Made by a program: the position numbers and the translations under genes. 29,296 nucleotides of DNA from a virus, in UHGV virus genome UHGV-0080837. One strand, given 5' to 3'. Below, in pieces: positions 1 through 29,296 of this stretch. Position 1 is the first letter of the stretch, and every line of letters starts with the position of its first letter. Below the pieces are notes generated by a model. The model searched no databases, was not told the origin of the DNA, and saw only the letters and a list, made by a program, of their open reading frames with translations.

Positions 1-162
1 CGGCGAGAAGGGCGATGACCTCAACCAGCTCCGCGACAAGGCAATCATTGAAAATACGTGCCTCGAATCAAAGGCTTGTATTTTGAAAATTAACTTATAG
101 CTACCCTGTCATTTTTATATTTTTCGCGTAGCGTCATCTGTATATAGAGGTTAAATAGTTTC

Positions 163-1191
163 ATGAGTGAATTAATTATCTCTGGCAGTTCCGGTGGTTT
201 TCTGCGCAACATTGGCAAAGAGTACCAGGAAGCCGCAGAAAACTTTATGCGGTTCATGAATGACCAGGGAGCTTATGCGCCGAATACTCTGCGCGACCTC
301 CGTTTGGTGTTTCATTCCTGGGCGCGCTGGTGTCACGCTCGCCAGCTTGCCTGGTTTCCGATCTCACCAGAAATGGCCCGCGAGTATTTTCTTCAGCTGC
401 ATGATGCCGATCTGGCTTCGACCACCATTGATAAGCACTACGCCATGCTGAACATGCTGCTTTCGCATTGTGGCCTTCCGCCACTTTCGGATGATAAAAG
501 TGTTTCTCTGGCTATGCGGCGCATCCGGCGTGAAGCGGCAACTGAAAAAGGCGAACGAACAGGCCAGGCTATACCGCTGCGGTGGGACGATCTGAAACTG
601 CTCGACGTCCTGTTGTCCAGGTCAGAACGGCTGGTGGACCTGCGCAACCGGGCTTTTCTCTTTGTTGCATACAATACGCTGATGCGTATGTCGGAAATCT
701 CGCGTATTCGTGTAGGAGATCTGGACCAAACAGGTGACACTGTCACGCTACATATTTCACACACGAAGACAATAACGACCGCCGCCGGGCTTGATAAGGT
801 GCTTTCCCGTCGCACTACCGCTGTGCTGAATGACTGGCTGGATGTTTCCGGGCTTCGCGAACATCCTGACGCAGTGCTGTTCCCGCCGATACACCGTAGC
901 AATAAGGCCAGGATCACGATAACGCCCCTTACTGCACCTGCAATGGAGAAAATATTCAGCGACGCCTGGGTGTTGCTGAATAAAAGAGATGCTACGCCAA
1001 ACAAAGGAAGATACCGGACGTGGACCGGGCATAGTGCACGCGTCGGGGCCGCTATTGATATGGCTGAAAAGCAGGTGTCTATGGTGGAGATCATGCAGGA
1101 AGGAACCTGGAAGAAACCGGAAACACTTATGCGGTATCTTCGCCGTGGCGGCGTGTCTGTGGGGGCTAATAGCCGCCTGATGGATTCGTAA
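163..1191 (+). CDS. cre: Cre-family tyrosine site-specific recombinase (diverged homolog of phage P1 Cre)
   Basis: 342-aa ORF alignable by eye to P1 Cre along its length: VSLAMRRIR, AFLFVAYNTL.R..EI.RIRV.D, TKT, GHSARVGAA.DMA, and a C-terminal MRYLRRG segment holding the candidate catalytic Tyr. ATG at 163, TAA at 1189-1191. Confidence 0.88.
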   Translation: MSELIISGSSGGFLRNIGKEYQEAAENFMRFMNDQGAYAPNTLRDLRLVFHSWARWCHARQLAWFPISPEMAREYFLQLHDADLASTTIDKHYAMLNMLLSHCGLPPLSDDKSVSLAMRRIRREAATEKGERTGQAIPLRWDDLKLLDVLLSRSERLVDLRNRAFLFVAYNTLMRMSEISRIRVGDLDQTGDTVTLHISHTKTITTAAGLDKVLSRRTTAVLNDWLDVSGLREHPDAVLFPPIHRSNKARITITPLTAPAMEKIFSDAWVLLNKRDATPNKGRYRTWTGHSARVGAAIDMAEKQVSMVEIMQEGTWKKPETLMRYLRRGGVSVGANSRLMDS

Positions 1192-1264
1192 ATTAAATTT
1201 CTAACACATCTTTTTAGATTAACGCCTTTGCTGTAAAGTACCCTCGCCTATTTAGGAGGGTGCT

Positions 1265-1609
1265 TTGCAGAGTCAAATCACGGAATCAAGACGCTTCAAG
1301 GTGGATGGTTACACCGTAACCTTCGCCGCTGGTGTTAAGAACAGTCATGCTGTCGTTGTGTTCGGCATCATGACCGGGCTTGAGGCCGTCCCTGTGTTTA
1401 CCCTCGAAAAAAACTGGCGAAATCTGGAGGAAGCAGAAAGCTACGTCCGGAAAGTAACCATCATTGCCGCCGAAAAACTCCTGGCCCACTATCAGGAAAA
1501 TTATCGCACTATGGTCGAGAAGATTAATCTCGCTTTCACTCGCCCCACTACCGGCTTTATTGCACCGGATACTAATGCCGGTCGATATCCTGCAAGGGGG
1601 CGTCGGTGA
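1265..1609 (+). CDS. hypothetical protein (cre-adjacent small ORF)
   Basis: 114-aa ORF with TTG start at 1265 preceded by AGGAGG (1253-1258). Its stop overlaps the next start (GTGA at 1606-1609). Confidence 0.5.
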   Translation: MQSQITESRRFKVDGYTVTFAAGVKNSHAVVVFGIMTGLEAVPVFTLEKNWRNLEEAESYVRKVTIIAAEKLLAHYQENYRTMVEKINLAFTRPTTGFIAPDTNAGRYPARGRR

Positions 1610-2082
1610 AAACTTATTACCCATCTCTGAATTGTTACCCGTCTTCCTATCCAGAATTATCCGGGAAGCTGTTAGCTCTATTAGCTAAAGCACCTACGGA
1701 ATGGTTTAAGCCAGTCGTTATCAATCCACACTTCCTGGATTACGGATCTGTTCGCACTCGTAACGAACTCAAAAACCTACTGGCGCATGGATTCATTCGA
1801 CACCGTGCCGGGAAAGGCTATCAGTTAGCGATTGCACCAGAAGAGGCCGTGCGGCTATTCGCATATCGTGACAGCCAGACAAAAGCTCGGGTAATAGCTC
1901 AAATACTTCATAACGGCAGCACCTATGCCCGCCAGTTTGGCGGCGACACGTCGCAGTTCTTGCGGGCGGTGCGATCGCTGGAGGAGCAAGGAGTTATTGA
2001 AAGTTCCTGTCTTCCTGTTCCTACCGTTCCACATATCAAACGTCGGGTTTACACCTTCACGCAGAGAGCTAAAAAACAATGA
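1606..2082 (+). CDS. hypothetical protein
   Basis: 158-aa ORF, GTG start overlapping the upstream stop; its own stop overlaps the dut ATG (ATGA at 2079-2082). No family recognised. Confidence 0.5.
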   Translation: MKTYYPSLNCYPSSYPELSGKLLALLAKAPTEWFKPVVINPHFLDYGSVRTRNELKNLLAHGFIRHRAGKGYQLAIAPEEAVRLFAYRDSQTKARVIAQILHNGSTYARQFGGDTSQFLRAVRSLEEQGVIESSCLPVPTVPHIKRRVYTFTQRAKKQ

Positions 2083-2573
2083 TTTACGTAAAAGTGAAAC
2101 GCCTACATCCGGCAGCAAAACTTCCAGCTTATGCCACCTCCGGATCGGCGGCGATGGATTTTGAGGCTGTTGAAATAAAACCATGCGTCGATAGCAATGG
2201 TGCAATTTCCTCAAGCTGGTGGGTGTATACCGGACTGGCTATGGAGATCCCGCCCGGCTGGTGTCTGAAACTCTATCCGCGATCAGGATTGGGCTGCAAA
2301 AAACATACTCGCCTGGCTAACTGCGTAGGAATTATCGACTCCGATTATCGCGGCGAAATCATGGCAAAACTGATTACTGATCCCGGCGGGGAAGGCGTTT
2401 GTCTCAAGCCTGGAATGGCTGTCATGCAAGGAATTTTTGAGCGTGTTGAACAAGTCTCACTAGTCGAGGTTGAGGAACTCAACGAAACGGAGCGTGGTGC
2501 TGGTGGCTTTGGTAGCACATCGGAAGGCCACTTTGAAATTAAGCGTTCACCGCTTCAGTACGAAAAGTTATAA
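2079..2573 (+). CDS. dut: dUTP diphosphatase (trimeric dUTPase)
   Basis: 164-aa ORF with dUTPase motifs: RSGLG, IIDSDYRGEI, and the C-terminal motif-5-like ERGAGGFGSTS. Confidence 0.85.
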   Translation: MIYVKVKRLHPAAKLPAYATSGSAAMDFEAVEIKPCVDSNGAISSSWWVYTGLAMEIPPGWCLKLYPRSGLGCKKHTRLANCVGIIDSDYRGEIMAKLITDPGGEGVCLKPGMAVMQGIFERVEQVSLVEVEELNETERGAGGFGSTSEGHFEIKRSPLQYEKL

Positions 2574-2587
2574 GCAGAGAAAAGACT

Positions 2588-3265
2588 ATGAATAACAAGG
2601 CAACGAAAGAGCTTTTTAAGCTCCTTCCCAAATACAAAGCTCAAAAAAACGTTAGTGCATCGAAAATCAAAAATGTTGTTATTTTCGGAGTAACTGATAC
2701 CCCACTTTGGGGCAGCATCGAACTCGTTGAACCTAAAGGGGCAACAGTTTGTGTTGACGCAATGTTTTTACAAAAACACCGACCAAAAACTGGCGGGTAT
2801 CTGATCGTTTATGAAAACGGTTATCTGTTCTATGCCCCGGAGAAACCATTTGAGGAACGCTATGGCCTGGTTAACGACGCCTCCAAAAATGGAACCACGG
2901 TCATCATTACGGATGACAACGGCGTGATGATTAATCTTACCGGGAGCGTAACTATTTCTGCTGGTGGCATCACCACCCAGCAAGAAGAAATCGACCTTGA
3001 AGCAGCCGACTTTTCTGACGCGCTGATGTGGCTGAAGGATGGCAAGAAAGTTGCCCGGCGCGGGTGGAACGGCGAAAACCAATTCTGCTGGCTGGTTCCT
3101 GAAGGACAGTACCCGGCACGAATGGAAGCCATTAAGGGATATTTCCCCGGCGATCTCGTTCCGTATGGTGCTTATTTCGCCTTAAAAAATGCACAAGGTG
3201 TAGTTGTTCCGTGGGTGCCTTCTGTAGGCGACTTACTGGCATGTGACTGGTTTGTAGTGGAGTGA
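2588..3265 (+). CDS. two-domain protein: unknown N-terminal domain plus C-terminal DUF2829 (Tad2-like) domain
   Basis: 225-aa ORF. C-terminal ~85 aa (FSDALMWLKDGKKVARRGWNGEN ... WLVPEG ... VVPWVPSVGDLLACDWFVVE) matches the DUF2829 pattern as I recall it; the N-terminal ~140 aa are unassigned. Confidence 0.6.
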   Translation: MNNKATKELFKLLPKYKAQKNVSASKIKNVVIFGVTDTPLWGSIELVEPKGATVCVDAMFLQKHRPKTGGYLIVYENGYLFYAPEKPFEERYGLVNDASKNGTTVIITDDNGVMINLTGSVTISAGGITTQQEEIDLEAADFSDALMWLKDGKKVARRGWNGENQFCWLVPEGQYPARMEAIKGYFPGDLVPYGAYFALKNAQGVVVPWVPSVGDLLACDWFVVE

Positions 3266-3271
3266 TTTAAC

Positions 3272-4039
3272 GTGGAAAATACTAAAGCAATTCAATACCG
3301 CTTGCGTAATGGCCTGCTGGTGGCTGTTAACGCCGACATGTCACTGCCGTTTGACACGATTGAACGTACTATCATGACGTATCTCGGCTTTAATGAAGAG
3401 CTGAATGAAGAGCATGGCGTAGCTATATGGAGTGATGCAGAAAGCGGCGTTCATCGTTACATCACCGCCAGGGGCAAAGACTACTCTCTGGAAGAACTGT
3501 TTACCCTTGCACAGTCTTTCGAATGTGTAGCATTAGACATGTTTAATGATCCTGCTATAGCGCAACGACTTATACGCGAGCTTGGGCTGTCGGTTACACC
3601 AATTATCTTTAAGAATGGCAGCCTGACTGGCACATGGCGCGTAGAACGCATCTCAAACTACCTTCCATATAACCGACAGTTAAATGGAGTAATCTCCGGC
3701 GTTAATCAGCCCGTAGCGTGTGAAAATGTAAACCTGGTTGCCGCTGTTTTGGCAACCGCATGTCGTGTTATCGGTTTGGCTAAACAGGCTTTTATTCATT
3801 TCCCAAATGGTGCAGAAGGTAGCGCAGAGATTATCGCGTGTGATTTCGAATTTACCTGGATGCTACGCGAATATCTGGACCAAACAGTGTTCCGCGCCGA
3901 AGAACTGGATATGTATATCACGTCAACGATTCCTGATGATGTGCGTGCTGAAGCAATCGCTACGGCCAGGGCGAAATGCCGTGCGGCGATTGCAGAACAG
4001 GCCAAAGAAGAAGTTAAGGAAGTGGCAGATGGCGACTAA
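3272..4039 (+). CDS. hypothetical protein
   Basis: 255-aa ORF with GTG start at 3272, acidic C-terminus; same strand and tight spacing with neighbours. Confidence 0.5.
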   Translation: MENTKAIQYRLRNGLLVAVNADMSLPFDTIERTIMTYLGFNEELNEEHGVAIWSDAESGVHRYITARGKDYSLEELFTLAQSFECVALDMFNDPAIAQRLIRELGLSVTPIIFKNGSLTGTWRVERISNYLPYNRQLNGVISGVNQPVACENVNLVAAVLATACRVIGLAKQAFIHFPNGAEGSAEIIACDFEFTWMLREYLDQTVFRAEELDMYITSTIPDDVRAEAIATARAKCRAAIAEQAKEEVKEVADGD

Positions 4040-5123
4040 GAGCAATATTTATAAAGATCCGCGCTGGCTGTCGCTGGTGGAGAAATATAAAGACAATTGG
4101 GTACTGGCAGCAAAAGAATTGTTTGATATTGATTTAAGCCACCAGCAACAACAAATTGTTGAAGCTATACAGCCCAATAATGCAAAAGCTACTGTCACCA
4201 CTCCGTATGGGATCGGACGACCGCAAGTGCTTGCTGTTATTAGTACCCTTTATACGATTATGTATCCTGATTCCCGGACAGTAATTGTTTATCCAAAATC
4301 AAATGTTTGCAAAAGAGGAATTGTTGCATATGTGTGGCAATGTTGGGAGGCATTGCTGAAAAAACAACCTTTTATCATTGAGTATTTTAAGGTCGGTGAT
4401 AGCGGTCTGATGTTCAATGAATTTTGGGGAATGTGCTTTTGTAACTACCGCCTTAACTATGAAGATAGCATTGCAGGTCACTACGCCGACCATCTTTTAT
4501 TCATTATTGTGGATTCCGCACATATCAGCGATCGGGCATACAGCATTGTGTGGGCAAGCATGACTAGTGGTGATTCACGCATATTGCTCACTTCAATTCC
4601 GTCACCAGAGGAAATAGGCTTTTTTTATGATTCACATCATGGACGTGCTTTAGCTGAAGATAATCCGAGTGGTGTATATAAAGCCATTAAGCTGAGTGCG
4701 GAGGATTCACCATTTATTACCCAAGAATATCTTGATCATTTTGCCGAAAGGTATGGCGGGCGAAATAGTGATGACTATCGTCGTATGATTCTTGGTGAGT
4801 TCCCTGGTATTAGGGAGGCTGTTCTTGAATCAGATATGCCGAAGACAATGCGCTTTTCGATGCCTGATGGTAGTGAATGGACAATGCCATTACGAGTGAT
4901 AGCCCGGCATCATGCGCAGCACCACGCCAAAAAACATGGCGTCACGACATTAGAATGGTTGAAATCGCACACTATTCCACTCTTCACTGCAGATCACAAT
5001 GCTATCATTGAGTGGGCAAAAACAATTCCGTGGGAGCATGTCGCTGAATATGCTCACATGCTAAAACCGCCGAAAGACAGGCACGAAATTAGCTGGCTGA
5101 CAGCCGAAAAAATCATTGAATGA
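4029..5123 (+). CDS. hypothetical protein (364 aa from the ATG at 4029)
   Basis: The track ORF 3738..5123 overlaps the previous gene in another frame; the in-frame ATG at 4029 (MATKSNIYKD...) overlaps the upstream stop by 11 nt and is the likely start. Contains a Walker-B-like hydrophobic stretch ending in DS (LLFIIVDSAH), but no P-loop. Confidence 0.5.
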   Translation: MATKSNIYKDPRWLSLVEKYKDNWVLAAKELFDIDLSHQQQQIVEAIQPNNAKATVTTPYGIGRPQVLAVISTLYTIMYPDSRTVIVYPKSNVCKRGIVAYVWQCWEALLKKQPFIIEYFKVGDSGLMFNEFWGMCFCNYRLNYEDSIAGHYADHLLFIIVDSAHISDRAYSIVWASMTSGDSRILLTSIPSPEEIGFFYDSHHGRALAEDNPSGVYKAIKLSAEDSPFITQEYLDHFAERYGGRNSDDYRRMILGEFPGIREAVLESDMPKTMRFSMPDGSEWTMPLRVIARHHAQHHAKKHGVTTLEWLKSHTIPLFTADHNAIIEWAKTIPWEHVAEYAHMLKPPKDRHEISWLTAEKIIE

Positions 5124-5168: not shown

Positions 5169-5558
5169 TTAAATCACAGGTCTATAATCAAACTCCCCAC
5201 TTCGGGCATCATTAATGACATGAGTGATCACACCAAACACAGCATTACTGCCCGTGCATCCATCGTCATCTACTGGTAACGCCTCTTTCTTCCCGGTGCT
5301 TAAATCCTCCAGGTGCTGGCGCGGATACTTCCTGTATCTCTTTATGCGATATTCACCCTCCATAGCGCATATAAGCAGTGAACCATCAACCGGAGTAAGT
5401 GAGGAATCAACCACCAGCAAAGCACCTTGCAATATTCCCTCACGGTGATGGCTGTCTGCCGCCCGCATGAAGTAGGTCGCGGAAGGATGTCTGATTAGTT
5501 GCTGATCAAGAGAAATGCGGCTCTCTGCATAATCCGCCGCAGGAGAAGGGAAGCCCAT
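5169..5558 (-). CDS. humD: UmuD'-like S24-family protein (P1 HumD-type SOS mutagenesis accessory protein)
   Basis: 129-aa ORF with a LexA/UmuD C-terminal-domain-like core (LLVVDSSLTPVDGSLLI ... EGEYRIKRY). A consensus SOS box lies 19-38 nt upstream of its ATG. Confidence 0.8.
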   Translation of the reverse strand: MGFPSPAADYAESRISLDQQLIRHPSATYFMRAADSHHREGILQGALLVVDSSLTPVDGSLLICAMEGEYRIKRYRKYPRQHLEDLSTGKKEALPVDDDGCTGSNAVFGVITHVINDARSGEFDYRPVI

Positions 5559-5576: not shown

Positions 5577-5596
5577 TACTGTTTATTCATACAGTA
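5577..5596. promoter_or_regulatory. LexA operator (SOS box) in the humD promoter
   Basis: TACTGTTTATTCATACAGTA at 5577-5596: perfect CTGT-N8-ACAG spacing with an AT-rich centre. Confidence 0.8.
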
Positions 5597-5681
5597 TACA
5601 TTGAAAAGGCATAGTTTGTGAAAGCGGGGTTTGTAGGCGCGCCACGCTGGGGGCTAATCACATTTCTCCCCCATCTTGCCG

Positions 5682-5933
5682 TTATTTTTTTGGTGCATCC
5701 TCGTTCTGATACACCGGATCGCTCCCTTTTGGCAACTGGAGGCTTAACTGCCGGTAGTGCCGTAGCCGTTCCATGAAATAGGCGCGCAGATTCTCTGGTT
5801 GCTCGCGGGCTACCTGTTCAGCTATGACAGGTATGTTCAATCGCTCTTTGTACGCCACACCGCTGGCAGCCAGATCAACGTTAACCTTATCCCGTTCTTC
5901 CTGACTTTTAGCTGCAATATTCCAGTCGCTCAT
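5682..5933 (-). CDS. hypothetical protein
   Basis: 83-aa ORF, tightly spaced after the upstream gene (stop at 5936, start at 5933). Confidence 0.45.
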
Positions 5934-5935
5934 AT

Positions 5936-6208
5936 TTAAGGCTCACATTTCCAGATGGTATTCTGAACACCAGAACCGGGCGCTAGATGAGGGTTAGCGT
6001 TCGCGCTATGCTGATATACTGCTTTAGACTTCCCATATTGCTGACAGGCTTTATCTGCGGTTTTTTGCAGGCTATCCAGGCCATACCAACCATCTGACTG
6101 TATGCTTACCTTTTCACCGTCGTTGTATTGCACCATTGCACACCCAGATATAGCCAGTATCGCGCCGACAATAACGCTTTTCCATAAAACTCTATGCAAC
6201 ATATACAA
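5936..6208 (-). CDS. small lipoprotein, YgdI/YgdR-like (DUF903-like)
   Basis: Signal peptide with lipobox (ILAISGC); mature N-terminus [18 protein letters not shown] resembles the YgdI/YgdR pattern. Confidence 0.45.
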
Positions 6209-6247
6209 AAATCCCCTCTGTGAATTGAGGGGATTTTAGCATGGTGA

Positions 6248-7006
6248 TCAGATATCGGCCTTATTCGGAATTTTATCAGCCACCAGCGGCAATAAAGCCT
6301 TCGCCATTTCATGAACCAACATGGCATCAATGACGCCTAGCGTATGGCCCGGCTTAATCTTTAATGCGGCCTCAAGATAGCCTCTTTCCAGAGTGGTTTT
6401 TACGCTTTTCTTGGGCGATTGTTGGGAACTATCCGGAAAATCCGGATGGTTGCCAGCCTCGTAAGCTACCCGCAGCCAGTGCATGAATGTTTCAGTGGAC
6501 ACACAACCACAGTCCACATCGATTTTCCCGCGTTGCTGTTCCAGCCATTGCCCAAAATCCAACCTGTAAGTCTTACTTTCAAGTTCATCACCATTGAACT
6601 CGACTTTCTGCGACGCTATGAGAGCTGATTCGTATTGTTCGCGAGTGACAACTGACAGGTATTCATCGCTATCAAGGTCACCAATTGGAAGCTCAATCTC
6701 ACAACAAAAATTGCGCCCAAAGAACGTGTCTTTTTTGTGGTCTGAGCCAAAAGCAAAAGTCGCGCATGGCGCCATTAAATTGGCACTGAGCAGGCGACAA
6801 TCGATCATACCATCAGGCCACCCGCCGCACTTAGGCAGCTCCTTCACTAACAAGTCGATAAGCTTCATTTTTTTATCATCTTTGCAAGCCGCCAAAGCCA
6901 TTTGGGCAAGTGCCAATACTTCATCTGCCGTATATCCAGCACCGTGACCATACATTTCGATACGGGCGATAATCTCTGATATGCGTTCTTTAGTGATTCT
7001 TGTCAT
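6248..7006 (-). CDS. hypothetical protein
   Basis: Track ORF 6248..7021; the ATG at 7004-7006 (MTRITKER...) gives an ATGA overlap with the upstream stop and is the likely start. Confidence 0.45.
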   Translation of the reverse strand: MTRITKERISEIIARIEMYGHGAGYTADEVLALAQMALAACKDDKKMKLIDLLVKELPKCGGWPDGMIDCRLLSANLMAPCATFAFGSDHKKDTFFGRNFCCEIELPIGDLDSDEYLSVVTREQYESALIASQKVEFNGDELESKTYRLDFGQWLEQQRGKIDVDCGCVSTETFMHWLRVAYEAGNHPDFPDSSQQSPKKSVKTTLERGYLEAALKIKPGHTLGVIDAMLVHEMAKALLPLVADKIPNKADI

Positions 7007-7377
7007 TTCTTTTTGCGCCATTTCTTTTCACATTCCTTAGTCCATTTTTCAATGTTCATTTTGGCAATATCAGTCATTCCATCACCTAAGAAATACTTTT
7101 TCCGGTATGCCTTGCACTTAAACCACACGACAACAGCCACCAGCCAGAAAATAAAAGGCCATACAGCAATACCAACTACAGCCGCGATAAAGCCCAATAG
7201 CCATAAATGAAGCTCTCCAACTTCTGTTTGCGGCAATATTCTTAAAGAATTAAACAGCAGACTGAACGAATGGTCGTATGCATTGGCGGTATAAGACATG
7301 CAATCCATATAATTAAAGTCATAGCCTGCGGCTGCCGCCCATAATGGGCGGTCAAGAAAATGTTTTAGTGTCATCAT
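7003..7377 (-). CDS. small membrane protein
   Basis: 124-aa ORF with one strongly hydrophobic segment (LWLLGFIAAVVGIAVWPFIFWLVAVVVWF) and a Lys-rich C-terminus. Confidence 0.45.
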   Translation of the reverse strand: MMTLKHFLDRPLWAAAAGYDFNYMDCMSYTANAYDHSFSLLFNSLRILPQTEVGELHLWLLGFIAAVVGIAVWPFIFWLVAVVVWFKCKAYRKKYFLGDGMTDIAKMNIEKWTKECEKKWRKKK

Positions 7378-7383
7378 ATAAAC

Positions 7384-7677
7384 TTAAGGTTCAGACCAGT
7401 TATCTTCAATAGCAATGCTTAATCTTTGTAGCCATTCTGCTAATTTCAGCATTGCTTCTCTTTCGCTTAAACCACGAGGAAAATCATCAAGCGAAATTGT
7501 TGGCTTGAAGCCCCCGTAATTATCCATTTCAACGGTCAGATTTTGCTCCAGCACGGTATTCCTTACGCGGCTATTGTGCCGAAGCAAATATACTGAACGT
7601 GATTTATTGGTTTTGTGGTCGAATGTATATTCGGTAAGTATCATCTGGCTTCCGCCATGATTATTACCTCGCCACAT
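7384..7677 (-). CDS. hypothetical protein
   Basis: 97-aa ORF; GGAG 5 nt upstream of the ATG at 7677. Confidence 0.45.
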   Translation of the reverse strand: MWRGNNHGGSQMILTEYTFDHKTNKSRSVYLLRHNSRVRNTVLEQNLTVEMDNYGGFKPTISLDDFPRGLSEREAMLKLAEWLQRLSIAIEDNWSEP

Positions 7678-7689
7678 AATTACTCCGTG

Positions 7690-8106
7690 TTAATAAGAGA
7701 AATATACCGTTGCAACACTGTTATATTGGTCGAACGAAATAGCATTTACTTCATAGCTGGTGGGCAGCTTCTTACCAAGAATGTAGCCAGGCCATGAGTT
7801 CCACGGAATTTCTGTACGGTCGTCGTCTTGCCACATTACGCAACCAAGAGAGCCAACCATTTCACCATATCGCTTGCCACAAGTAACAAAGCCGATATTC
7901 GGCTTTTCTTGTGTTGCTGATACCATGGTGGTATTGGCAGATGCATTGATTGCAGTACGCCGCGCTTGCTCGCTAGCGATAGAAGCATTTACTGCCGCCG
8001 TGGTCGCTGCTGTTGCCGCCGCTCCAGCGGCAACAACTGACGCGTGGGATAAATGACTGGCTGATAACATAGCCAGAAAAATAATAGCTCTTTGAAATTT
8101 AGCCAT
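7690..8106 (-). CDS. secreted protein with N-terminal signal peptide
   Basis: Within track ORF 7690..8184; the internal ATG at 8106 gives MAKFQRAIIFLAMLSASHLSHA (a typical Sec signal) followed by an Ala/Thr-rich linker. Confidence 0.45.
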   Translation of the reverse strand: MAKFQRAIIFLAMLSASHLSHASVVAAGAAATAATTAAVNASIASEQARRTAINASANTTMVSATQEKPNIGFVTCGKRYGEMVGSLGCVMWQDDDRTEIPWNSWPGYILGKKLPTSYEVNAISFDQYNSVATVYFSY

Positions 8107-8132
8107 TGATTTAACCTTTATTGCGAACATAT

Positions 8133-9623: not shown

Positions 9624-9624
9624 A

Positions 9625-21922: not shown

Positions 21923-21966
21923 ACCACACATAGCCTAGTAGTTTATGCTGGGCTTTCATTTTTTTG
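21916..21966 (+). terminator. hairpin plus T-run between convergent genes
   Basis: AGCATAAAC (21916-21924) pairs with GTTTATGCT (21941-21949), followed by GGGCTTTCATTTTTTT. Confidence 0.35.
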
Positions 21967-22684
21967 AAAGATCAATTCCAGTATTATCAAACAAACTGGA
22001 AATATCAGACACCAATTTATTAAAATGCTTGTCATCATTATAGAATGATGTGCTTTTTATAGCGACTATAAAATCACATAAATCTTGCGGAGATTCAATG
22101 CTAACCCCCTTATTTTTATATAGCTCAATAATACTGCCAACATCAGTATGCAATAGTTTTATCGCGCCACAAATTTCTCGCTGTTTCGCAACTAGGTCAT
22201 TAAGTTTATTTTCATTTTCATCTAAGATTTGTTTTGAATATTTAGCGTCATTGGTTGCTTGATTTAACTTTGTTTTCTTTCTTTGCAATTCTATTCTTTT
22301 ATCATAATCAGCAACTTCATCTAAATATCTTATTTCAGTGTATAATTTACTTGTTAGCTTAGATATCTTCAGTGTGAGAATAGGAGCTAACACAGATGCA
22401 AATACTCCATAAACAAATGGGATTACAACGTGATAAACCCACGGGGATACAATCCAATTATCAAAGAACGGGACATTGCCACCAACAAAAACAATAGATA
22501 ATGTATATAGGATGTCGTCCTTTGACTTTAATATAATTAAAATATCCTTCCAGTTAAAAATTAGAAAAGAAATGACAACATATGCAAAAACCTTGTTAAA
22601 TATTTTATCTTTTATTATTTCAGAAAATGATTTTAGTTCTGTTTCATTTATAGACGGATTATCTGTAACTTTTTCTGACATCAT
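21956..22684 (-). CDS. AT-rich moron: two-TM membrane protein with coiled-coil and C-terminal globular region, function unknown
   Basis: 242-aa ORF; sampled 60-nt lines are about 25-27% G+C against about 50% in flanking genes. Two hydrophobic helices (VFAYVVISFLIFNW... and VYHVVIPFVYGVFASVLAPILTL), then K/E/N/Q-rich heptad-like sequence. Confidence 0.5.
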   Translation of the reverse strand: MMSEKVTDNPSINETELKSFSEIIKDKIFNKVFAYVVISFLIFNWKDILIILKSKDDILYTLSIVFVGGNVPFFDNWIVSPWVYHVVIPFVYGVFASVLAPILTLKISKLTSKLYTEIRYLDEVADYDKRIELQRKKTKLNQATNDAKYSKQILDENENKLNDLVAKQREICGAIKLLHTDVGSIIELYKNKGVSIESPQDLCDFIVAIKSTSFYNDDKHFNKLVSDISSLFDNTGIDLSKK

Positions 22685-22705
22685 AGCTTATCCTGATTAC
22701 TTTTA

Positions 22706-22906
22706 TTATGGATAGTTAAAAGATTCAACAGGTGATGGTGGCTGAATTGGGTAATGTTTCTTCTCGTACTCCTCAATGAGAAGACTCATAACCTCAAAGA
22801 AATCACCTTCCGGAGTATTCATTTCCGGTTCGTTATCGAACATCGGTTCGACCGCACGCAGTGCGGCCTCATAATCTTGTTCTGTACGGATAGGTTTAAT
22901 GTTCAT
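22706..22906 (-). CDS. small acidic protein, possibly antitoxin-N-domain-like
   Basis: 66-aa ORF (IKPIRTEQDYEAALRAVEPMFDNEPEMNTPEGDFFEVMSLLIEEYEKKHYPI). Normal GC, weak RBS; the family assignment is from a low-confidence recollection. Confidence 0.35.
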   Translation of the reverse strand: MNIKPIRTEQDYEAALRAVEPMFDNEPEMNTPEGDFFEVMSLLIEEYEKKHYPIQPPSPVESFNYP

Positions 22907-22917
22907 TAATTACAAAG

Positions 22918-22947
22918 GAAAGCCCACTTGCTAAGTGGGCTTTTTGT
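22918..22947. terminator. hairpin plus T-run between higA and the small ORF
   Basis: GCCCAC TTGCTAA GTGGGC (22923-22941) with TTTTT on the + side and a U-rich tract on the - side. Confidence 0.4.
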
Positions 22948-22962
22948 ATGTGTTTTACTATA

Positions 22963-23301
22963 TCAGGCTGCTTTTTTATTCAGGTTCCGCTGAGAAATAA
23001 ATTTTTCAGCAGTATTGATACGACTTAACTCTTCCTGAACGCGCATATCATTTTCGACTTCCCACAGATCTACTGCGGTCTGAAGATTAATCCAAAAATC
23101 TACAGAAGTATCGAATGCTTTTGCCAGGCGATATGCCATATCCATCGTTAGCTTACGATTATTATTAACAAGAGCACTTACGGTGTTACGATGAACATGA
23201 AGTATTTCTGCTAACTCGTTGATCTTCAGCTCTAACGGCTCCAGGTATTCGTACAGAAGGATATCACCTACGGTCGTCGGTTTTCTGGTTGCCTGTTTCA
23301 T
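22963..23301 (-). CDS. higA: HigA-family antitoxin (XRE-type HTH)
   Basis: 112-aa ORF with the HigA-type HTH pattern (VGDILLYEYLEPLELKINELAEILHVHRNTVSALVNNNRKLTMDMAYRLAKAFDTSVDFWINLQ), immediately downstream of the toxin gene. Confidence 0.75.
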   Translation of the reverse strand: MKQATRKPTTVGDILLYEYLEPLELKINELAEILHVHRNTVSALVNNNRKLTMDMAYRLAKAFDTSVDFWINLQTAVDLWEVENDMRVQEELSRINTAEKFISQRNLNKKAA

Positions 23302-23371
23302 TTTTTGCCCTTACTAGCGTGCGTATTAAGTGGACTCTGGTCAGAACCCGGACCGTAACCGGGAATCTGTT

Positions 23372-23674
23372 TTAGTATTTGTGTGGGTCGAGATACAAGT
23401 CCTCGGCCTTTCCGTTAACCCACTTAAAAATTAACCTATATTGCTTATTCACCCTTACTGATGAATAGCCATTTAGCTTCCCTGACAGTTCCTCATACCG
23501 ATTACCTGGTGGTGATCTTAAATCCTTACAGGTAGTTGCGGCATTGATAATGTCCAACTTCCGTGACAATGTCATATGAATATCAGGAGGTATCTTTCTA
23601 TGTGGTGTTGAAAATTCAAAAAAATCATCAAGCCACGCATCCCTGAAATCCTTTATGTTAATTTTTTTGGTCAT
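23372..23674 (-). CDS. higB: HigB-like toxin (plasmid maintenance system killer protein family)
   Basis: 100-aa ORF with the family pattern DL.SPPGNRYEELSGKLNGYSSVRVNKQYRLIFKWVNG.AEDLYLDPHKY; toxin-first order typical of higBA. Confidence 0.75.
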   Translation of the reverse strand: MTKKINIKDFRDAWLDDFFEFSTPHRKIPPDIHMTLSRKLDIINAATTCKDLRSPPGNRYEELSGKLNGYSSVRVNKQYRLIFKWVNGKAEDLYLDPHKY

Positions 23675-23836: not shown

Positions 23837-24628
23837 ATGGGCCGTTTTGACGAATGGTTTGCTGACGATGCAAACCTGGCAAGTAAGGAGTCAGAACATG
23901 ACAGCACGCAGAGAGAAACGCCAGCGCCGATTGAAGCGAATGCAGGAGGTGCGCCGGAACATGGCAATACCGGTTCGGATTCATTCAGCATTCTGGAAGA
24001 GCAACCCGCCGCCAAAGCTGATAGCCATGATAATTTTGCTGATAGCAACGCTGGCCTTACTCCGGATGCTGCCGAATCAGATATAGCCATACTTCCACCT
24101 TCCCTGGCTGGCAGAGAACCAACTCCACAGCTAAAAGCACGCTATAACGGGCATAAAGCCTTTAATGACCAAATCCGCGCAGACTGGATGCTGATTATTG
24201 AATCCAGCCCAGACGCGTTTCAGGCTCTCTTATATCGACCAGATGTTGGCACATATGGGGTAGTCAGCGACGAAACAGGAGAAGAGTCATTCACTGAACT
24301 GGATAACAACCAACGCGAACTGACTTACCAGGAACCTGAAATCGTTTATGTGCTGGATAACCCTGACGGGCGTGACTCTTTCCATGCGATTGACGCAGAC
24401 GGTGAGCAGGATGGCTTAACCGATGATGTTCTGATTCTGCGTATTGCAGCAAATAACGTCCCCGTCGGCTCAATTCTTGAATGGAATGAAGAGATGGTAA
24501 ACGGCGTAGCCCGCCGCTGGTGGTACGTGCACCGTATTTTTAGCTACGGCACACAGCATGTTGGTTCGCTTTACTACTGCATACCTGCCAGGAATTTTGA
24601 TACGACTCAAAACGGAGTGATCGAATGA
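23837..24628 (+). CDS. hypothetical acidic protein, first gene of a rightward morphogenesis-type operon
   Basis: Start taken at the ATG at 23837 after GAGGA, inside track ORF 23735..24628. Acidic and Ala/Pro-rich N-terminal half; stop overlaps the next ATG. Confidence 0.45.
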   Translation: MGRFDEWFADDANLASKESEHDSTQRETPAPIEANAGGAPEHGNTGSDSFSILEEQPAAKADSHDNFADSNAGLTPDAAESDIAILPPSLAGREPTPQLKARYNGHKAFNDQIRADWMLIIESSPDAFQALLYRPDVGTYGVVSDETGEESFTELDNNQRELTYQEPEIVYVLDNPDGRDSFHAIDADGEQDGLTDDVLILRIAANNVPVGSILEWNEEMVNGVARRWWYVHRIFSYGTQHVGSLYYCIPARNFDTTQNGVIE

Positions 24629-25392
24629 CTTCAAATAAAACCCTCCTGGCGCGAACAGGTGAATGGCAAACCTCACGCACAGGAAAATTCCAGACCACGG
24701 GCTTTGAAAACGTGGATAACGCGTTTGCGACGCTAATCAGCAACATTTTTTCTGATATCTTACTTGTGGCCCCCGCGCCGGAAGAAAAACGCTTTGCGTC
24801 ATTCCTGAATCGTCCACCAGCAGAGCGTGTCTATGTGGCCCGTTTCGACAATGCGATCGAGTTTCTTAAAGCAGTACGTCGCGCAAATGCCGGGCAAGGG
24901 AGAAAACCTGAAAACCAGAACATTAACCGGGATGCTCTCCCCCTGGTCAATATCTCACGCACTATGGATATCAATTATATCAACGATGATCAGCAGATTG
25001 ACCGCAAAAAAGTAGCCAGTTTTTGCGAACCGGATACCGGAATGCCTTTAGCAGAACTGGAATACACCCAGGCCATTCTGACGTATGACGTTACGTTAAT
25101 GGCAACTGATAAAGCGACCATGAGTCTGATGTGTAATTCGCTGGGCGCACGGCTTCGCCTGATGACAGGTACACAATTTGAAGCAACCACTCACCTTGTT
25201 CGTGTCCCGGTCCCGCTGATTTGCTCGATACAGGATGCCAAAGAAGTCGGCTTTACGGATGTTTCAGCACCAATTGGAGAAGAGCGTATTTATGCCACAC
25301 AAGCGCCGATAAGTGTGATTGCAGACGTGATCACAGCATGGGAGTTGGACGCAAAACGTATTATTACCGAAACCTCGATATCTATGGGGTGA
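24625..25392 (+). CDS. hypothetical protein (tail/baseplate operon member)
   Basis: 255-aa ORF, ATGA-coupled to the upstream gene. Confidence 0.4.
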   Translation: MTSNKTLLARTGEWQTSRTGKFQTTGFENVDNAFATLISNIFSDILLVAPAPEEKRFASFLNRPPAERVYVARFDNAIEFLKAVRRANAGQGRKPENQNINRDALPLVNISRTMDINYINDDQQIDRKKVASFCEPDTGMPLAELEYTQAILTYDVTLMATDKATMSLMCNSLGARLRLMTGTQFEATTHLVRVPVPLICSIQDAKEVGFTDVSAPIGEERIYATQAPISVIADVITAWELDAKRIITETSISMG

Positions 25393-25395
25393 TAA

Positions 25396-26376
25396 GTGGC
25401 CCAGGAGTTACAACAATATTTTCTACAGTCAGTGCTCATTAACGATAACAAAGTGCCACGAGACTGGATTTTTACCGCAGTATATGTAGAAAAAACCAGC
25501 CTCAAAGCCCCTTTGCTAAAACTGGAAATTCATGACGCTACCGGCACCGTAATTGATGACTGGAAAGCAAAATACGGTGCATCGCTGGTGGCTGAAATGG
25601 GCGATCCAAACGGTAATGCAGGCACTTTTAAAACAGATTTCTTTGTTACGTCTGCAATGCTGGCTGGTGATGTTGTTACCGTTATTGCTGTCAGTGAAGA
25701 CGTGCGCAGGTTTAAGATCCCCTCCCCGCGCACAAATTTACATACCAACAAAACACCAGACGCTATATTCAAGGCATATTCCGGCAAGCTTAAAATTACC
25801 AGCAGCGTGCTAAAACGCGCAGTTACATATCATCTGAATGCCGGTGACAAACCGTCAAAAATGCTCTCGCAGATAGCGCGAGACAAAGGTGCATTATGTT
25901 GGGTATGCCGTGGGGAATTTAACTTTTACACCCTGGCTGATCTGATGAAGCAAACGCCATCATTTACCTACGAGGGGAATAACCCTAAAGCAGAATACAC
26001 TTTGTCCAAAATGCGCCTACTCCAACAGGAACATGCGACAACAGCAAAGAATCAATATCGTTTTGTTGGGTATTCCATGACCGATGGCTACGTCGAATAT
26101 GGCGATAGCTCACTCCCAGTGCGTTATATATCCGACTCTGATATGGAAACTCTTCGCAATATGCAGCTGTCTCTCGTCCCCAAAATGGATATAGAAGTCG
26201 CAGGCAATCCGGATATAAAACCGGGAATGGTAATAGAGATTATCGTATACCGCTATGACCAGGAAAACCGCATTGATGAATCAATGCCCCGCAAGCTGAT
26301 AGTAAAAAATGTTGCGCACTTTGAAGACCGCGTAGGCTACACAACACGAATGATATTAGGAGTGCCGAACAAATGA
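25396..26376 (+). CDS. putative baseplate hub-type protein (gpD/gp44-like)
   Basis: 326 aa. Assignment rests on position directly upstream of, and overlapping, the spike-like gene; sequence resemblance is weak. Confidence 0.35.
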   Translation: MAQELQQYFLQSVLINDNKVPRDWIFTAVYVEKTSLKAPLLKLEIHDATGTVIDDWKAKYGASLVAEMGDPNGNAGTFKTDFFVTSAMLAGDVVTVIAVSEDVRRFKIPSPRTNLHTNKTPDAIFKAYSGKLKITSSVLKRAVTYHLNAGDKPSKMLSQIARDKGALCWVCRGEFNFYTLADLMKQTPSFTYEGNNPKAEYTLSKMRLLQQEHATTAKNQYRFVGYSMTDGYVEYGDSSLPVRYISDSDMETLRNMQLSLVPKMDIEVAGNPDIKPGMVIEIIVYRYDQENRIDESMPRKLIVKNVAHFEDRVGYTTRMILGVPNK

Positions 26377-27026
26377 AGCGTAGAGCGCAAATTGTTGGAA
26401 CTGTGCACCCGGCAGGGCTTATGCGTGCTCAGGTCCGTGTTTTACCAGACTGGAATGGCGTTCCTGATGACGATCTACCCTGGGCAGAATACCTGTTACC
26501 CATAGGTAACGCGTTTGTACCTACAGTAAAAGGCGACCTGGTATGGGTAGAGTTTCCTTATCTGGATGTTAATGGTCGAATTGATACCAGACGCCCAATG
26601 ATAGTTGGCGCAGCTCAGGATGCGCCTGGCGGAGTACCAAACGTCGCGCCGGAGGCGTCAGGCAATGGTAGCGGCTGGACGCCACCAGAAGTAGACGGAG
26701 CGCCTCCCCGCCCGCAATTTTCGGCGACAAAAGATTTCGTGATTCACCGCAACAATGTGCTCGAAGTGCGAACGGCTGGCGGTGGATATGAAATAGCGAA
26801 TACGGCAGCAGGCTCAAGGATTGGAATGAATGAATCAGGGCAGATATACATCATTGGTCCGGCTGATGTAGTAGTGAATGCGGGAGGGAGTGTTAACGTC
26901 AAATCAGCCGATAACATCAGCGTTAATGGCAAAAACATTACTGTGACAGCCGACGAAAATATTGATTTCAAGGCTGGAGGCACCTTCCAGGCTATCGCAA
27001 GCAACTTTGATTTCAAGAAGGGATAG
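26373..27026 (+). CDS. putative baseplate spike protein (gpV/gp45-like)
   Basis: N-terminus MKRRAQIVGTVHPAGLMRAQVRVLPDW ... LPWAEYLLP ... GDLVWVEF fits the OB-fold start of P2 gpV / Mu gp45-type spikes; Gly-rich repetitive C-terminus. Confidence 0.45.
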   Translation: MKRRAQIVGTVHPAGLMRAQVRVLPDWNGVPDDDLPWAEYLLPIGNAFVPTVKGDLVWVEFPYLDVNGRIDTRRPMIVGAAQDAPGGVPNVAPEASGNGSGWTPPEVDGAPPRPQFSATKDFVIHRNNVLEVRTAGGGYEIANTAAGSRIGMNESGQIYIIGPADVVVNAGGSVNVKSADNISVNGKNITVTADENIDFKAGGTFQAIASNFDFKKG

Positions 27027-27035: not shown

Positions 27036-27079
27036 CCAATTGTGTTAGATAATTGAATAGAATTTTCTAACACAATTGG
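27036..27079. promoter_or_regulatory. perfect 14-bp inverted repeat operator overlapping the rdgC promoter
   Basis: CCAATTGTGTTAGA (27036-27049) and TCTAACACAATTGG (27066-27079) flank a 16-bp spacer containing TTGAAT; ends 6 nt before the rdgC ATG. Confidence 0.55.
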
Positions 27080-27085
27080 TGAAAC

Positions 27086-27991
27086 ATGAGATCAGTCGCT
27101 TTCAAAAACATCTTCATCTATCGTCTTTCACGTGAAGTTAACTGGAGTGCCGCAGAAGTATCCGATGCTCTTAGCAAATTCGTGTTTACTCCTTGCGGTT
27201 CTCAGGACACAGCTAAAGTCGGTTGGACACCTGTTCTTGGTGACAACCTCACCCATGAATACCAGGGTTTTCTGCTAATACAGCATAAGCGAGAAGAAAA
27301 AATTCTCCCCTCGCAGGTGCTCAAGGAAGAGTTGCAGAAAAAAGTCCTGAAACTCGAAGAAGAGCAAGCCCGCAAGCTGAAGAAAACGGAAAGAGACAGT
27401 CTTAAAGATGAAGTCCTGCATTCACTTTTGCCTCGCGCGTTCACGAGAAAATCACTCGCCAAAATCCTGATCGACCGCAGCAACCATCTGGTATTCGTTG
27501 AGGCAAGCAGCGCCAAAAAGGCAGAGGACCAGCTGGCTTTATTGCGAAAGTCGCTCGGCAGCCTGCCTGTCATTCCATTCACACCACGCGAACCGCTGGA
27601 AATTACAATGACCGAGTGGTTTAAAAGCGGCTTCCCTGCCGGATTTACAGCAGGTGAAGACGCCACATTAAAGGGTCTGCTCGATAATGGTGGTGCCGTT
27701 CGCTGCAACAAAGTTGATCTACAGTCCGACGAGATTATGTCTCACATTGAGGCGGGGAAAGTAGCTACGACCGTTGCAATTAACTGGATGGACCGTGCGT
27801 CGTTCAGAGTCAACGATGATATGAGTATCAAAGCCCTGACATTCTGTGATGATCTCTATGACCAGAACGACGATATCGACCGGGAGGATGTAGCACAACG
27901 ATTTGATGCTGATTTCGTGCTCTTTACGGGCGAATTATCTGCACTGTTTAACGCGCTGGTGGAGGCCATTGGCGGTGAAGCAGAACGATAA
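27086..27991 (+). CDS. rdgC: recombination-associated protein RdgC homolog
   Basis: 301-aa ORF near-colinear with E. coli RdgC from memory: [93 protein letters not shown]. Confidence 0.9.
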
Positions 27992-28007
27992 TAACCGACC
28001 GCTTGTT

Positions 28008-28655
28008 GTGAGTCTTTGTGATTTTACGGGGGCAATGGTTGCCCCCTGGCTGGAATACGGTGTCGATGCCGCTATCGTCGATCCACAGCACTTATCGACC
28101 AGTGACGAGCGGATGCAATCAGGTGCCGTTCTGACGCGTATTAGTGCGATCATCGATAGCGATGAAGTATACGCTTTTCTCCGTAAGAATTTGCAGCGCA
28201 TCGTGTTTCTGGCCGGGTTCCCACCGTGTACTGACCTGGCTGTTTCCGGCGCGCGCTGGTTTTCGGACAAGGCTAATAAAGATCCGGTTTTCCAGTTCAA
28301 AGCAATGCAGGTTGTCTGGCAGTGTTATGACATTGCAAAGATGATCGGTTGTCCGTACATGATTGAAAATCCGGTCAGCAAAATATCGACATTCTGGCGT
28401 AAGCCAGATCACATCTTTCACCCTTACTTCTTCACTGCATATTGTCAGGAAGATAACTACACCAAAAAAACATGCCTCTGGAGCGGCCAGGGCTTTGTCA
28501 TGCCTGATGCCCTAATGGACGAATCATTAGGCAAGCCAGATAACAGAATCCATGCCGCGCCACCAGGGCCTGACAGGGCTAATTTCCGAAGTGCTACTCC
28601 ACATGGATTCGCAAAGGCAGTTTTCGAAGCGAATAAGGGGGTGCTCTATGAGTAA
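28008..28655 (+). CDS. compact C5-cytosine-methyltransferase-like protein
   Basis: Motif I-like SLCDFTGAM, PC motif FLAGFPPCTDLAVSG, ENV-like MIENPV, but only about 215 aa with no room for a normal target-recognition domain. Start uncertain (GTG at 28008 or ATG at 28035); the track ORF begins inside rdgC. Confidence 0.5.
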   Translation: MSLCDFTGAMVAPWLEYGVDAAIVDPQHLSTSDERMQSGAVLTRISAIIDSDEVYAFLRKNLQRIVFLAGFPPCTDLAVSGARWFSDKANKDPVFQFKAMQVVWQCYDIAKMIGCPYMIENPVSKISTFWRKPDHIFHPYFFTAYCQEDNYTKKTCLWSGQGFVMPDALMDESLGKPDNRIHAAPPGPDRANFRSATPHGFAKAVFEANKGVLYE

Positions 28656-29296
28656 ATCTATAGCAAGCATAGCCATAGAAAAACAGGATACGATGGCTGA
28701 AATTAGCTATATGCGCACCATTCGGACTCCGGATGAATATGAGCGTCCGATATTCAAATGGGTAGGTGGTAAATTCTCAGAATTGCCTACAGTGCTTGAG
28801 CATCTACCACACGGTAAGCGGTTAATAGAACCATTCGTTGGTGGCGGTTCCGTATTTACGAATGCAGGATTTCGCCACAACCTGCTTAATGATATTAACG
28901 GTGACCTGATTAACTTCTATCAGACATTGCAGCGAGAAGGACATTCGCTCGTCACGCTGTCATATAGTTTTTTCAAAAATTACAACAACGCTGACGCTTA
29001 CCTCGAAGTGCGTGAGGCATTTAACAGAGGAAAATATGACCAGCTACATCATGCTGCCGCATTTTTGTACCTTAATCGTCACTGTTTTAATGGCGTAACG
29101 CGGTACAACCAAAATGGCGAGTTCAACGTGGGGTATGGCAAATACAAAGCGCCCTACTTCCCACATGCAGAGATGGAGGCATTTTTGGCTGATGACGTAC
29201 TCAAAAACACTTCCTTTGTATCAGGAGACTTTGCTAGCGTCATCGAGGCGGCTGGTGAAGACGATGTGATTTTTTGTGATCCGCCGTATGAACCGC
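28648..29296 (+). CDS. dam: Dam-family N6-adenine DNA methyltransferase, 3' end truncated by the window
   Basis: Hand-translated from the ATG at 28648: PIFKWVGGKFS, EPFVGGGSVF, FLYLNRHCFNG, GEFNV, and DPPY at the window edge. Overlaps the upstream stop; not in the ORF track because no stop is reached. Confidence 0.8.
   Translation, partial: MSKSIASIAIEKQDTMAEISYMRTIRTPDEYERPIFKWVGGKFSELPTVLEHLPHGKRLIEPFVGGGSVFTNAGFRHNLLNDINGDLINFYQTLQREGHSLVTLSYSFFKNYNNADAYLEVREAFNRGKYDQLHHAAAFLYLNRHCFNGVTRYNQNGEFNVGYGKYKAPYFPHAEMEAFLADDVLKNTSFVSGDFASVIEAAGEDDVIFCDPPYEP

Follow-up and report, generated by a model that had tools for sequence, protein, structure and literature searches.

Why do a Cre-type recombinase gene and ref, close neighbors in phage P1, stand more than 14 kb apart in the virus genome UHGV-0080837? 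The stretch analyzed here, 29,296 nucleotides (nt) of one strand and called the window throughout, carries the recombinase gene near its left end, a leftward array of small genes, and then ref followed by an immI-like antirepressor module. An earlier note, made from the letters alone, had described a mosaic in which landmark genes of P1-family phage-plasmids are interrupted by a lambdoid-type accessory operon. Our comparisons point elsewhere. The window is very probably part of a P1-related plasmid prophage of the D6 type that resided in Escherichia or Shigella and was sequenced from a gut metagenome, and its gene order is the normal one for this lineage. We are equally confident that the array separating the recombinase gene, dre, from ref is no lambdoid insertion: it corresponds, in the D6 lineage, to the early region that P1 keeps under repressor control.

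Gene order of the D6 lineage

The Cre-like, Ref-like, c4/icd/ant-like, and HumD-like genes on which the note relied are all present by Pfam, Rfam, and NCBIfam searches. Its account of P1 was also correct: in NC_005856, cre (436-1467) and ref (2077-2637) lie 610 bp apart. In the window, 14,514 bp separate the stop of dre from the start of ref, close to the 14 kb proposed, and the leftward array accounts for 10.4 kb of this distance. Is the wide spacing peculiar to this element? It is not. In Escherichia phage D6, dre and ref enclose the same backbone genes at a distance of 13.4 kb, so that a characterized member of the group has the natural wide spacing that the note had named as contrary to its proposal, at least for the backbone genes. 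With D6 collinear, the claim of an interruption falls.

The whole-element comparison that the note had recommended gives the same answer. Nucleotide searches at this scale used positions 1-25000 of the window as the query. D6 is the best phage match, covering 69% of the query at 94.7% identity; P1 covers 5% at ~91%. Local alignment with D6 by blastn and tblastn returns ordered, same-strand matches from position 44 to the last base, 29296. The D6 genome, reportedly published by Gilcrease and Casjens in 2018, is annotated in the order rox, dre, orf117, orf116, dut, DUF2829, and isaA-like, then a leftward block ending in hot and humD, and continues with ref, icd, ant, simB-like, mat, 26, 25, a toxin-antitoxin island, 7, 24, 6, 5, hrdC, and methyltransferases. 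At least 13 PLSDB plasmids carry ≥80% of the query at one place, as do 16 of 5,426 complete E. coli genomes, and all 25 of the plasmid matches listed span the query from 44 to ~25000. A further 21 IMG/VR contigs encode a Ref 95-98% identical to that of the window, with the same neighbors. The layout is common. The closed plasmids CP183151 and CP043746 are collinear with the window and cover 89-91% of the first 25 kb; no record in PLSDB or among the complete E. coli genomes covers more than 91%. The element is a new combination of known modules. Plasmid prophages resembling D6 are an established group, of which pYU39_89 is an example (PMC6799933).

How, then, do the two gene orders relate? In P1, a leftward block studded with C1 operators starts at a divergent promoter shared with gene 26 and runs through pmgL-pmgN, ppp, pmgQ-S, pmgT-V, hot, (lxr), and humD. 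The anchors of the window's array are collinear with this block, which means that P1 itself has such an accessory array, placed next to gene 26 rather than ref. The block lpa-pac-c1-lox/rox-recombinase keeps the same internal order in the P1 and D6 types, and CP043746 and CP183151 carry lpa, pacA, pacB, and the repressor gene directly left of dre. The D6 homologs of pmgS, pmgR, and pmgM lie elsewhere in its genome. As judged from gene order, the cre-ref separation is a lineage-wide rearrangement of modules between the P1 and D6 types and not an insertion in this element.

Content of the leftward array

The array (15597-5169) holds about 26-27 minus-strand open reading frames (ORFs), tightly packed or overlapping, and its guanine-cytosine (GC) skew is strongly negative. 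Pfam recognizes two Ead_Ea22 proteins, DUF551, DUF4752, DUF968, a NinI-like Metallophos (calcineurin-like) phosphatase, DUF4406, and the theta subunit of DNA polymerase III. The coordinates of these and all other features are collected in Table 1. Among the ~27 ORFs, Pfam and PHROGs searches found none of the lambdoid core early functions (int/xis, exo/bet/gam or erf, kil, cIII, N). In a set of ten ORFs mostly without a Pfam family, every one falls in an existing PHROG, nearly all of them of unknown function, and PADLOC returned nothing from this set save one match limited to a helix-turn-helix (HTH), described below with the low-GC island.

Which parts of the array are fixed and which are exchanged? 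D6, CP043746, and the 21 IMG/VR loci were aligned to the window as a coverage map. Two segments, 11.5-14.0 kb (the DUF968 gene, ppp, two small ORFs, and DUF4752) and 14.5-18.25 kb (the regulator-like ORF through immI), occur in 21-23 of 22-23 relatives. Across 5.75-11.5 kb the share of relatives drops to 0-50%, with the exception of the 250 bp bin 9501-9750 (15 of 16), and the slot at 14.0-14.5 kb is common to 4-11 of 23. The longest and best DNA matches of the variable zone come from the P1-group phage-plasmids MH422554, RCS47, and SJ46 (96-98%), where the cassettes occupy the equivalent place between ppp/pmgS and humD. MH422554 matches 53% of 5936-11200 at 98.1% identity, including the stretch 9619-11181 at 99.7%. 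Pieces within 8360-10480 are 92-96% identical to Shiga toxin (Stx) phages and to 933W L0064-L0069, and 14072-14257 is 99.5% identical to HK97 gp37; in 933W and HK97, the matching genes belong to the non-essential ea part of the early-left operon, flanked by xis on one side and exo or erf on the other. All told, ~2 kb of the 10.4 kb array is ≥90% identical to phages not of the P1 type. Breakpoints at 11487, 14087, 14388, 9619, and 9814 recur in many loci, at or near gene borders.

The mosaicism is genuine; in these alignments it amounts to cassette exchange inside a native module. The array divides into three sections. A promoter-proximal backbone, found in every relative, comprises the small first ORF, the DUF4406 gene, the regulator-like ORF, DUF4752, ppp, and the DUF968/pdcB-like gene. 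The promoter-distal zone holds gene-sized cassettes of the lambdoid ea/nin type, presumably swapped, by recombination at the recurrent boundaries near gene borders, with phage-plasmids of the P1 group and with lambdoid or Stx prophages in the same cell. Conserved hot and humD close the far end. Sharing of cassettes with lambdoid phages is expected and already documented. The GenBank notes of D6 compare its array genes with 933W, phiV10, mEp213, mEpX2, ES18, and N15. The pmgT-pmgV/upf/hot/lxr/humD, simABC, and isaA regions are among eight hypervariable regions of P1-like phage-plasmids, and in JL22 pmgT is replaced by an Ea22-containing cluster (PMC9603915).

Candidate operators and probable transcription units

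What controls the array? The P1 C1 operator consensus, ATTGCTCTAATAAATTT, has no site in the window at up to three mismatches. A 17-mer found de novo, TGTTAGAAAAYYAATTT, occurs at six window sites where 0.38 are expected; none of 100 shuffles reached six, and all six sites are intergenic. At the site in the divergent array/ref region, no base changes across 24 loci (16 distinct sequences), although the flanking bases do vary. The D6 genome, ~90% of which is coding, has 15 copies (up to three mismatches) where ~1.2 would be expected, and 14 of them fall between genes. Copies precede c1 and lpa, flank ref, occur close to pmgS/pmgR and repL, and occupy the ppp-pdcB interval; together they form a candidate D6 C1 regulon, parallel to that of P1. 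A D6-type C1 repressor would bind a 17 nt operator with the consensus TGTTAGAAAAYTAATTT. That repressor is a distant homolog of P1 C1 (21% identity, E 2e-8), a divergence which fits the diverged operator sequence. The candidate operator would account for the difference in immunity between D6 and P1, and both it and its regulon, as mapped here, may be newly defined.

These results qualify the earlier assignment to the P1 family. The element is a P1-related phage-plasmid, as proposed; its recombinase is Dre, and its operators are not of the P1 type. The two ends of the array were correctly described, with a divergent promoter region bearing an operator, here the candidate 17-mer, at one and an SOS-boxed humD at the other. 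That the divergent region is an operator-bearing promoter is a well-supported prediction from motif conservation and placement.

Is the array a single operon? It is probably several transcription units, because it contains a paired candidate operator inside (12527-12556) and a terminator-like hairpin (6237-6208), and humD has a predicted LexA-controlled promoter of its own. Of the note's description as a lambdoid-type accessory operon, the gene types survive, since ea/nin-type genes are present and some match 933W/Stx phages and HK97 at 92-99.5% DNA identity; the single operon is unlikely. The promoter-like site of humD reads TTCACA-18-TATACT at 5622-5593 on the minus strand. A perfect CTGT-N8-ACAG occurs only once in the window, at 5579-5594, and aligns with the annotated LexA site of P1 (P1 segment L002, 7237-7256). 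In the scheme we propose, C1 at the divergent site and at the paired internal site would keep the array silent in the lysogen, the long leftward transcript would end at the hairpin, and humD would be driven by its own LexA-repressed promoter.

Alternative explanations

Could an originally adjacent cre and ref, in a P1-type backbone, have been parted recently by a complete lambdoid early operon? The 610 bp spacing in P1, the Ea22, DUF551, DUF4752, and NinI-like genes, and the ~2 kb of nearly identical lambdoid or Stx DNA all speak for such an event. Yet D6 and every relative examined show the same separation and backbone, the anchors humD, hot, and ppp are shared with P1 and follow its order, and the candidate operators are of the D6 C1 type and not lambdoid. 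With no lambdoid core early functions found among the ORFs by Pfam or PHROGs, and with P1-group plasmids providing the best and longest DNA matches of the variable zone, we consider this history extremely improbable. The P1 annotation raises another question, whether the array is a morphogenesis operon rather than a set of dispensable host-takeover and accessory genes. The homologous region of P1 (pmgL-pmgV) is annotated with "putative morphogenetic function," and the ORF at 6248-7021 (257 amino acids, aa) shares 36% identity with the pmgT/U region. Otherwise near-identical elements nevertheless replace half of the array freely, the lysogenic ability of JL22 was unaffected by the replacement of pmgT (PMC9603915), and the pmgS, pmgR, and pmgM homologs of D6 map outside its array. 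The recognizable domains (phosphatase, HNH nuclease, Ea22, and DUFs) are those typical of non-essential lambdoid ea/nin genes, and a morphogenetic role for the array is highly unlikely.

The mosaic might also have been made in silico, by an assembler joining phage-plasmid and lambdoid prophage reads through shared short repeats. At least one chimeric join does exist in the contig, for its first 44 nt are unquestionably foreign: they match Segatella (Prevotella) copri perfectly and have no match in E. coli genomes, PLSDB, or IMG/VR, or in any D6-type relative. No independent record among those compared spans two short stretches of the DUF551 gene (8649-9239), at 8832-8878 and 9013-9242. All other junctions over 44-29296 are spanned at ≥85% identity by closed plasmids or independent viral contigs, and the collinearity of CP183151 and CP043746 over the first 25 kb also speaks against an artifact, which makes this explanation very improbable. 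Chimerism of the array as a whole is rejected on the same evidence, save for the ~270 nt patch in the DUF551 gene. The segments that make up this patchwork gene occur apart from one another in CP043746, CP183151/L010, and Stx phages; it arose either by true recombination within the gene or as a local chimera of the assembly.

The preferred reading, a D6-type plasmid prophage with its native early region, has some points to contend with. A sigma-70 scan called no promoter in the divergent region, where weak hexamers are visible by eye only. The unspanned patch of ~270 nt may be a local assembly artifact. Lastly, c1, rox, the replicon, and the head genes are not in the window, and we infer the status of plasmid prophage from the relatives. 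Among structural genes, the window has only tail and baseplate genes 26, 25, 7, 24, 6, and 5; the replicon, head, and sheath genes lie beyond its 29 kb. The window most likely lacks rox and c1 because its left contig end is foreign.

What is this left end? D6-type homology begins at ~45-49, about 35 bp to the right of the position of rox in CP043746, and S. copri sequence stands where rox would be expected next to dre. Positions 1-44 are probably a chimeric contig end from human-gut metagenome assembly, and the missing rox most likely reflects this chimeric or truncated end and not an element without rox. The junction was also considered as a product of Dre/rox recombination. This was rejected, as the join lies ~35 bp outside rox, its partner is a Bacteroidota chromosome, and the two share no sequence.

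Flanking modules and variable slots

The immI-like module to the right of ref is, on its predicted parts, mechanistically complete. The stop codon of icd overlaps the start of ant at 17290, and the D6 notes compare the antirepressor of that phage with Rha/Roi/KilA. The C4 RNA presents the loops CCTTTGAC and AGACCAA, with the complementary targets TTGGTCT and GTCAAAGG. These targets occur upstream at 16857-63/16873-80, inside the isrK-like RNA, and downstream at 17026-32/17056-63; the last of them overlaps GGAGG, the ribosome-binding site before the icd ATG.

Variable slots flank the array on both sides. To its left, the slot that holds phd-doc-pdcA-orf109 in D6 is occupied by an ORF (4029-5123), found also in CP043746 and CP183151, that is 33% identical to residues 8-266 of the P1 terminase PacB (E 7e-53), its N-terminal ATPase half. 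Walker A (GHGTGKS to PYGIGRP) and Walker B (IIDE to IIVD) are both degenerate and the nuclease half is missing; the product may be a packaging decoy or a regulator. The Tad2-like protein encoded nearby (2588-3265, plus strand) has 225 aa, with a C-terminal Tad2-like domain (Thoeris anti-defense 2, formerly DUF2829; Pfam 80 bits), and a 236 bp segment inside its gene, 2649-2885, is not found in D6.

To the right, the simB-like allele has a DNA-level match in only 1 of 19 relatives, and the N-terminal half of its product is unrelated to D6. This variability is consistent with simABC as a known hypervariable region of P1-like elements, and the SimB-like protein is a candidate for superinfection exclusion. 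The low-GC island further right separates tail genes 25 and 7, neighbors in P1, and parts of it are missing from 4-5 of 17-18 relatives. Its 242-aa ORF belongs to phrog_8191 and is only 58% identical to D6 orf73. The 66-aa HTH ORF of the island matches the N-terminus of PD-Lambda-2_B; this is the HTH-only match noted above.

Table 1. Features of the window, with positions in the window unless stated otherwise.
Feature	Position	Strand	Basis
Foreign left end	1-44		44/44 identity to four Segatella (Prevotella) copri chromosomes
dre, Cre-type tyrosine recombinase (D6 Dre ortholog)	163-1191	+	Pfam Phage_integrase; 99.7% aa identity to D6 Dre over 342 aa, 41% to P1 Cre
D6-type C1 operator candidate between dre and next rightward gene	1190-1206	-	1 mismatch to TGTTAGAAAAYYAATTT; site also in D6 and CP043746
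D6-conserved rightward accessory genes: orf117-like, orf116-like, dUTPase (2079-2573), Tad2-like/DUF2829 (2588-3265), isaA-like (3272-4039)	1265-4039	+	Homology to D6
Variable slot: PacB N-terminal-domain paralog, 364 aa, in place of D6 phd-doc-pdcA-orf109	4029-5123	+	phrog_5902, full length
humD (UmuD'-like)	5169-5558	-	NCBIfam HumD equivalog, 209 bits; 95% aa identity to P1 HumD
LexA box TACTGTATGAATAAACAGTA and humD promoter-like site	5579-5622	-	Box 5579-5594, 21 nt upstream of humD, shares last two bases of the -10 hexamer
hot (polymerase III theta homolog, 5682-5933) and small upstream ORF (5936-6136)	5682-6136	-	Pfam DNA_pol3_theta, 116 bits; 93% aa identity to P1 Hot
Terminator-like hairpin (strong), 11 bp stem and T run	6208-6237	-	Sequence scan
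Hypervariable cassette zone, ~17 small ORFs: pmgT/U-like 257-aa gene, phrog-only unknowns, Eaa-like, DUF551, two Ea22, others	6248-11475	-	Pfam, PHROG
DUF968/HNH gene (pdcB-like), backbone	11489-12484	-	Pfam DUF968, 154 bits; 22/22 relatives; 38% aa identity to P1 PdcB
Overlapping pair of operator-like 17-mers (bivalent type) between ppp and DUF968 gene	12527-12556		Motif
Backbone: ppp (lambda NinI-like Ser/Thr phosphatase), two small ORFs, DUF4752	12582-14075	-	Pfam Metallophos and DUF4752; Ppp 84% aa identity to P1 Ppp; 21-22/22 relatives
Lone variable slot in conserved part	14072-14506	-	3' 186 nt 99.5% identical to HK97 gp37 and to mEpX1/HK620 genes; junctions spanned by independent contig L012
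Conserved promoter-proximal genes: 105-aa regulator-like ORF, DUF4406 protein, small hydrophobic first ORF	14496-15597	-	Pfam DUF4406; phrog_323; 23/23 relatives
D6-type C1 operator candidate, 108 bp divergent region between array and ref	15628-15644	+	Perfect match; position and orientation as P1 Oref
ref (RecA-dependent nuclease)	15706-16284	+	Pfam RecA_dep_nuc (PF16786), 119 bits; 96% identical to D6 Ref, 55% to P1 Ref
Operator candidate overlapping ref stop codon, as P1 Omat	16278-16294	-	Motif
immI-like module: isrK-like RNA, C4 RNA, icd, ant	16831-18231	+	Rfam, NCBIfam, Pfam
isrK-like Hfq-binding small RNA	16831-16910	+	Rfam, 60 bits (threshold 50); directly upstream of C4 RNA
C4 antisense RNA	16934-17021	+	Rfam RF01695, 75.3 bits (gathering score 45)
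icd	17075-17290	+	NCBIfam phage_ICD_like
ant, Rha-type	17290-18231	+	Pfam Phage_pRha
simB-like gene	18268-19143	-	N-terminal part hypervariable; C-terminal 127 aa 83% identical to D6 SimB-like
mat, baseplate gene 26, and tail gene 25 homologs	19383-21922	+	Homology to D6/P1
Low-GC (~33-38%) island: 242-aa unknown ORF, 66-aa HTH ORF, HigA/HigB-like toxin-antitoxin pair	21956-23674	-	Between tail genes 25 and 7
Tail/baseplate genes 7, 24, 6, 5	23837-27026	+	Homology to D6/P1
Operator-like site upstream of hrdC	27056-27072	-	Motif; D6 has a pair of sites at the same place
hrdC/RdgC-like gene, DNA methyltransferase, 5' part of dmt-like gene (continues past the window)	27086-29296	+	Homology
Examples of the 17-mer in D6	199-215, 4632-4648, 10315-10331, 21260-21276, 75980-75996, 76630-76646, 80709-80738		D6 genome coordinates

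Significance

The seemingly striking mosaic is the standard layout of the known D6-type lineage, and its significance is mostly for annotation. For the variable half of the array, P1-like phage-plasmids have a counterpart hypervariable region that earlier work has described, and the chimeric S. copri end should not be taken as a sign of integration or of host range. Two by-products of the analysis are a map of conserved backbone and exchangeable cassettes over ~23 relatives and a candidate D6-type C1 operator consensus with its regulon.

Why maintain such an array? One unifying idea, which we hold only tentatively and think unlikely to be right as a whole, is that C1-repressed arrays serve as exchange platforms, trading small counter-defense and host-takeover genes with integrated lambdoid prophages, and that the nearby variable slots hold functions for competition between phages. 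The main candidate for competition would be the degenerate "pseudo-terminase" resembling the N-terminal part of PacB (4029-5123), which, speculatively, could act as a packaging poison against competing phages of the P1 type. Two further speculative candidates are the Tad2-like protein and the SimB-like protein, which is hypervariable.

Comparison with known systems

D6 (MF356679 / NC_050154) is the closest characterized system. Its gene order is collinear over the whole window, its operator-like sites are the same, and most backbone proteins are 92-100% identical, with lower values for Ant (84%) and DUF4406 (78%). The two differ in that D6 offers no match at ≥80% identity for ~26% of the window. 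The cassette sets are different at 5.9-11.2 kb and 14.1-14.4 kb, as are the simB-like N-termini and the contents of the slot taken by the PacB-like ORF. Hot is full length in the window and truncated in D6, and the Tad2-like gene is longer in the window.

The early region of P1, in the annotation of Lobocka et al. 2004 (NC_005856), is likewise a leftward, multi-promoter array that starts at a divergent promoter and carries C1 operators, which in the window are candidates. Both have ppp, a pmgT/U-like gene, hot, and a LexA-controlled humD in the same order and orientation, and in both ref is flanked by two operator sites in the same arrangement. The surroundings differ. The P1 array diverges from tail gene 26 and runs into phd-doc-pdcAB-lpa-pac-c1-lox-cre, whereas the array of the window and the D6 type diverges from ref and follows the dre operon. 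In P1, cre-c8-ref-mat are adjacent; in the window, ref is 14.5 kb from the recombinase gene, and mat lies 3.1 kb past ref with immI between. The recombinases are 41% identical, the operator sequence is different, and lxr is absent from the window.

"Region 8" (pmgT-humD) of the P1-like elements JL22, RCS47, SJ46, and MH422554 has the same position as the variable zone of the window, between ppp/pmgS and hot/humD (PMC9603915). It undergoes the same type of replacement by Ea22/Eaa/DUF551-type cassettes, which share up to 98-99.7% DNA identity with those of the window. These elements have the backbone, immunity, and gene order of P1 (Punavirus), whereas the window has a D6 backbone.

The ea regions of lambdoid pL operons (933W L0064-L0069, HK97 gp37, and the early genes of phiV10) have single small genes in common with the window at 90-99.5% DNA identity. 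Like the array, they are packed tightly head to tail with overlapping stops and starts and lie distally in an early, repressor-controlled leftward unit. Unlike lambdoid pL, the array is without int/xis, exo/bet/erf, kil, cIII, N, and lambdoid cI/Cro operators, and its control would rest on P1/D6-type C1 operators, as yet candidates, and on LexA. Near-identical lambdoid DNA makes up only about a fifth of the array.

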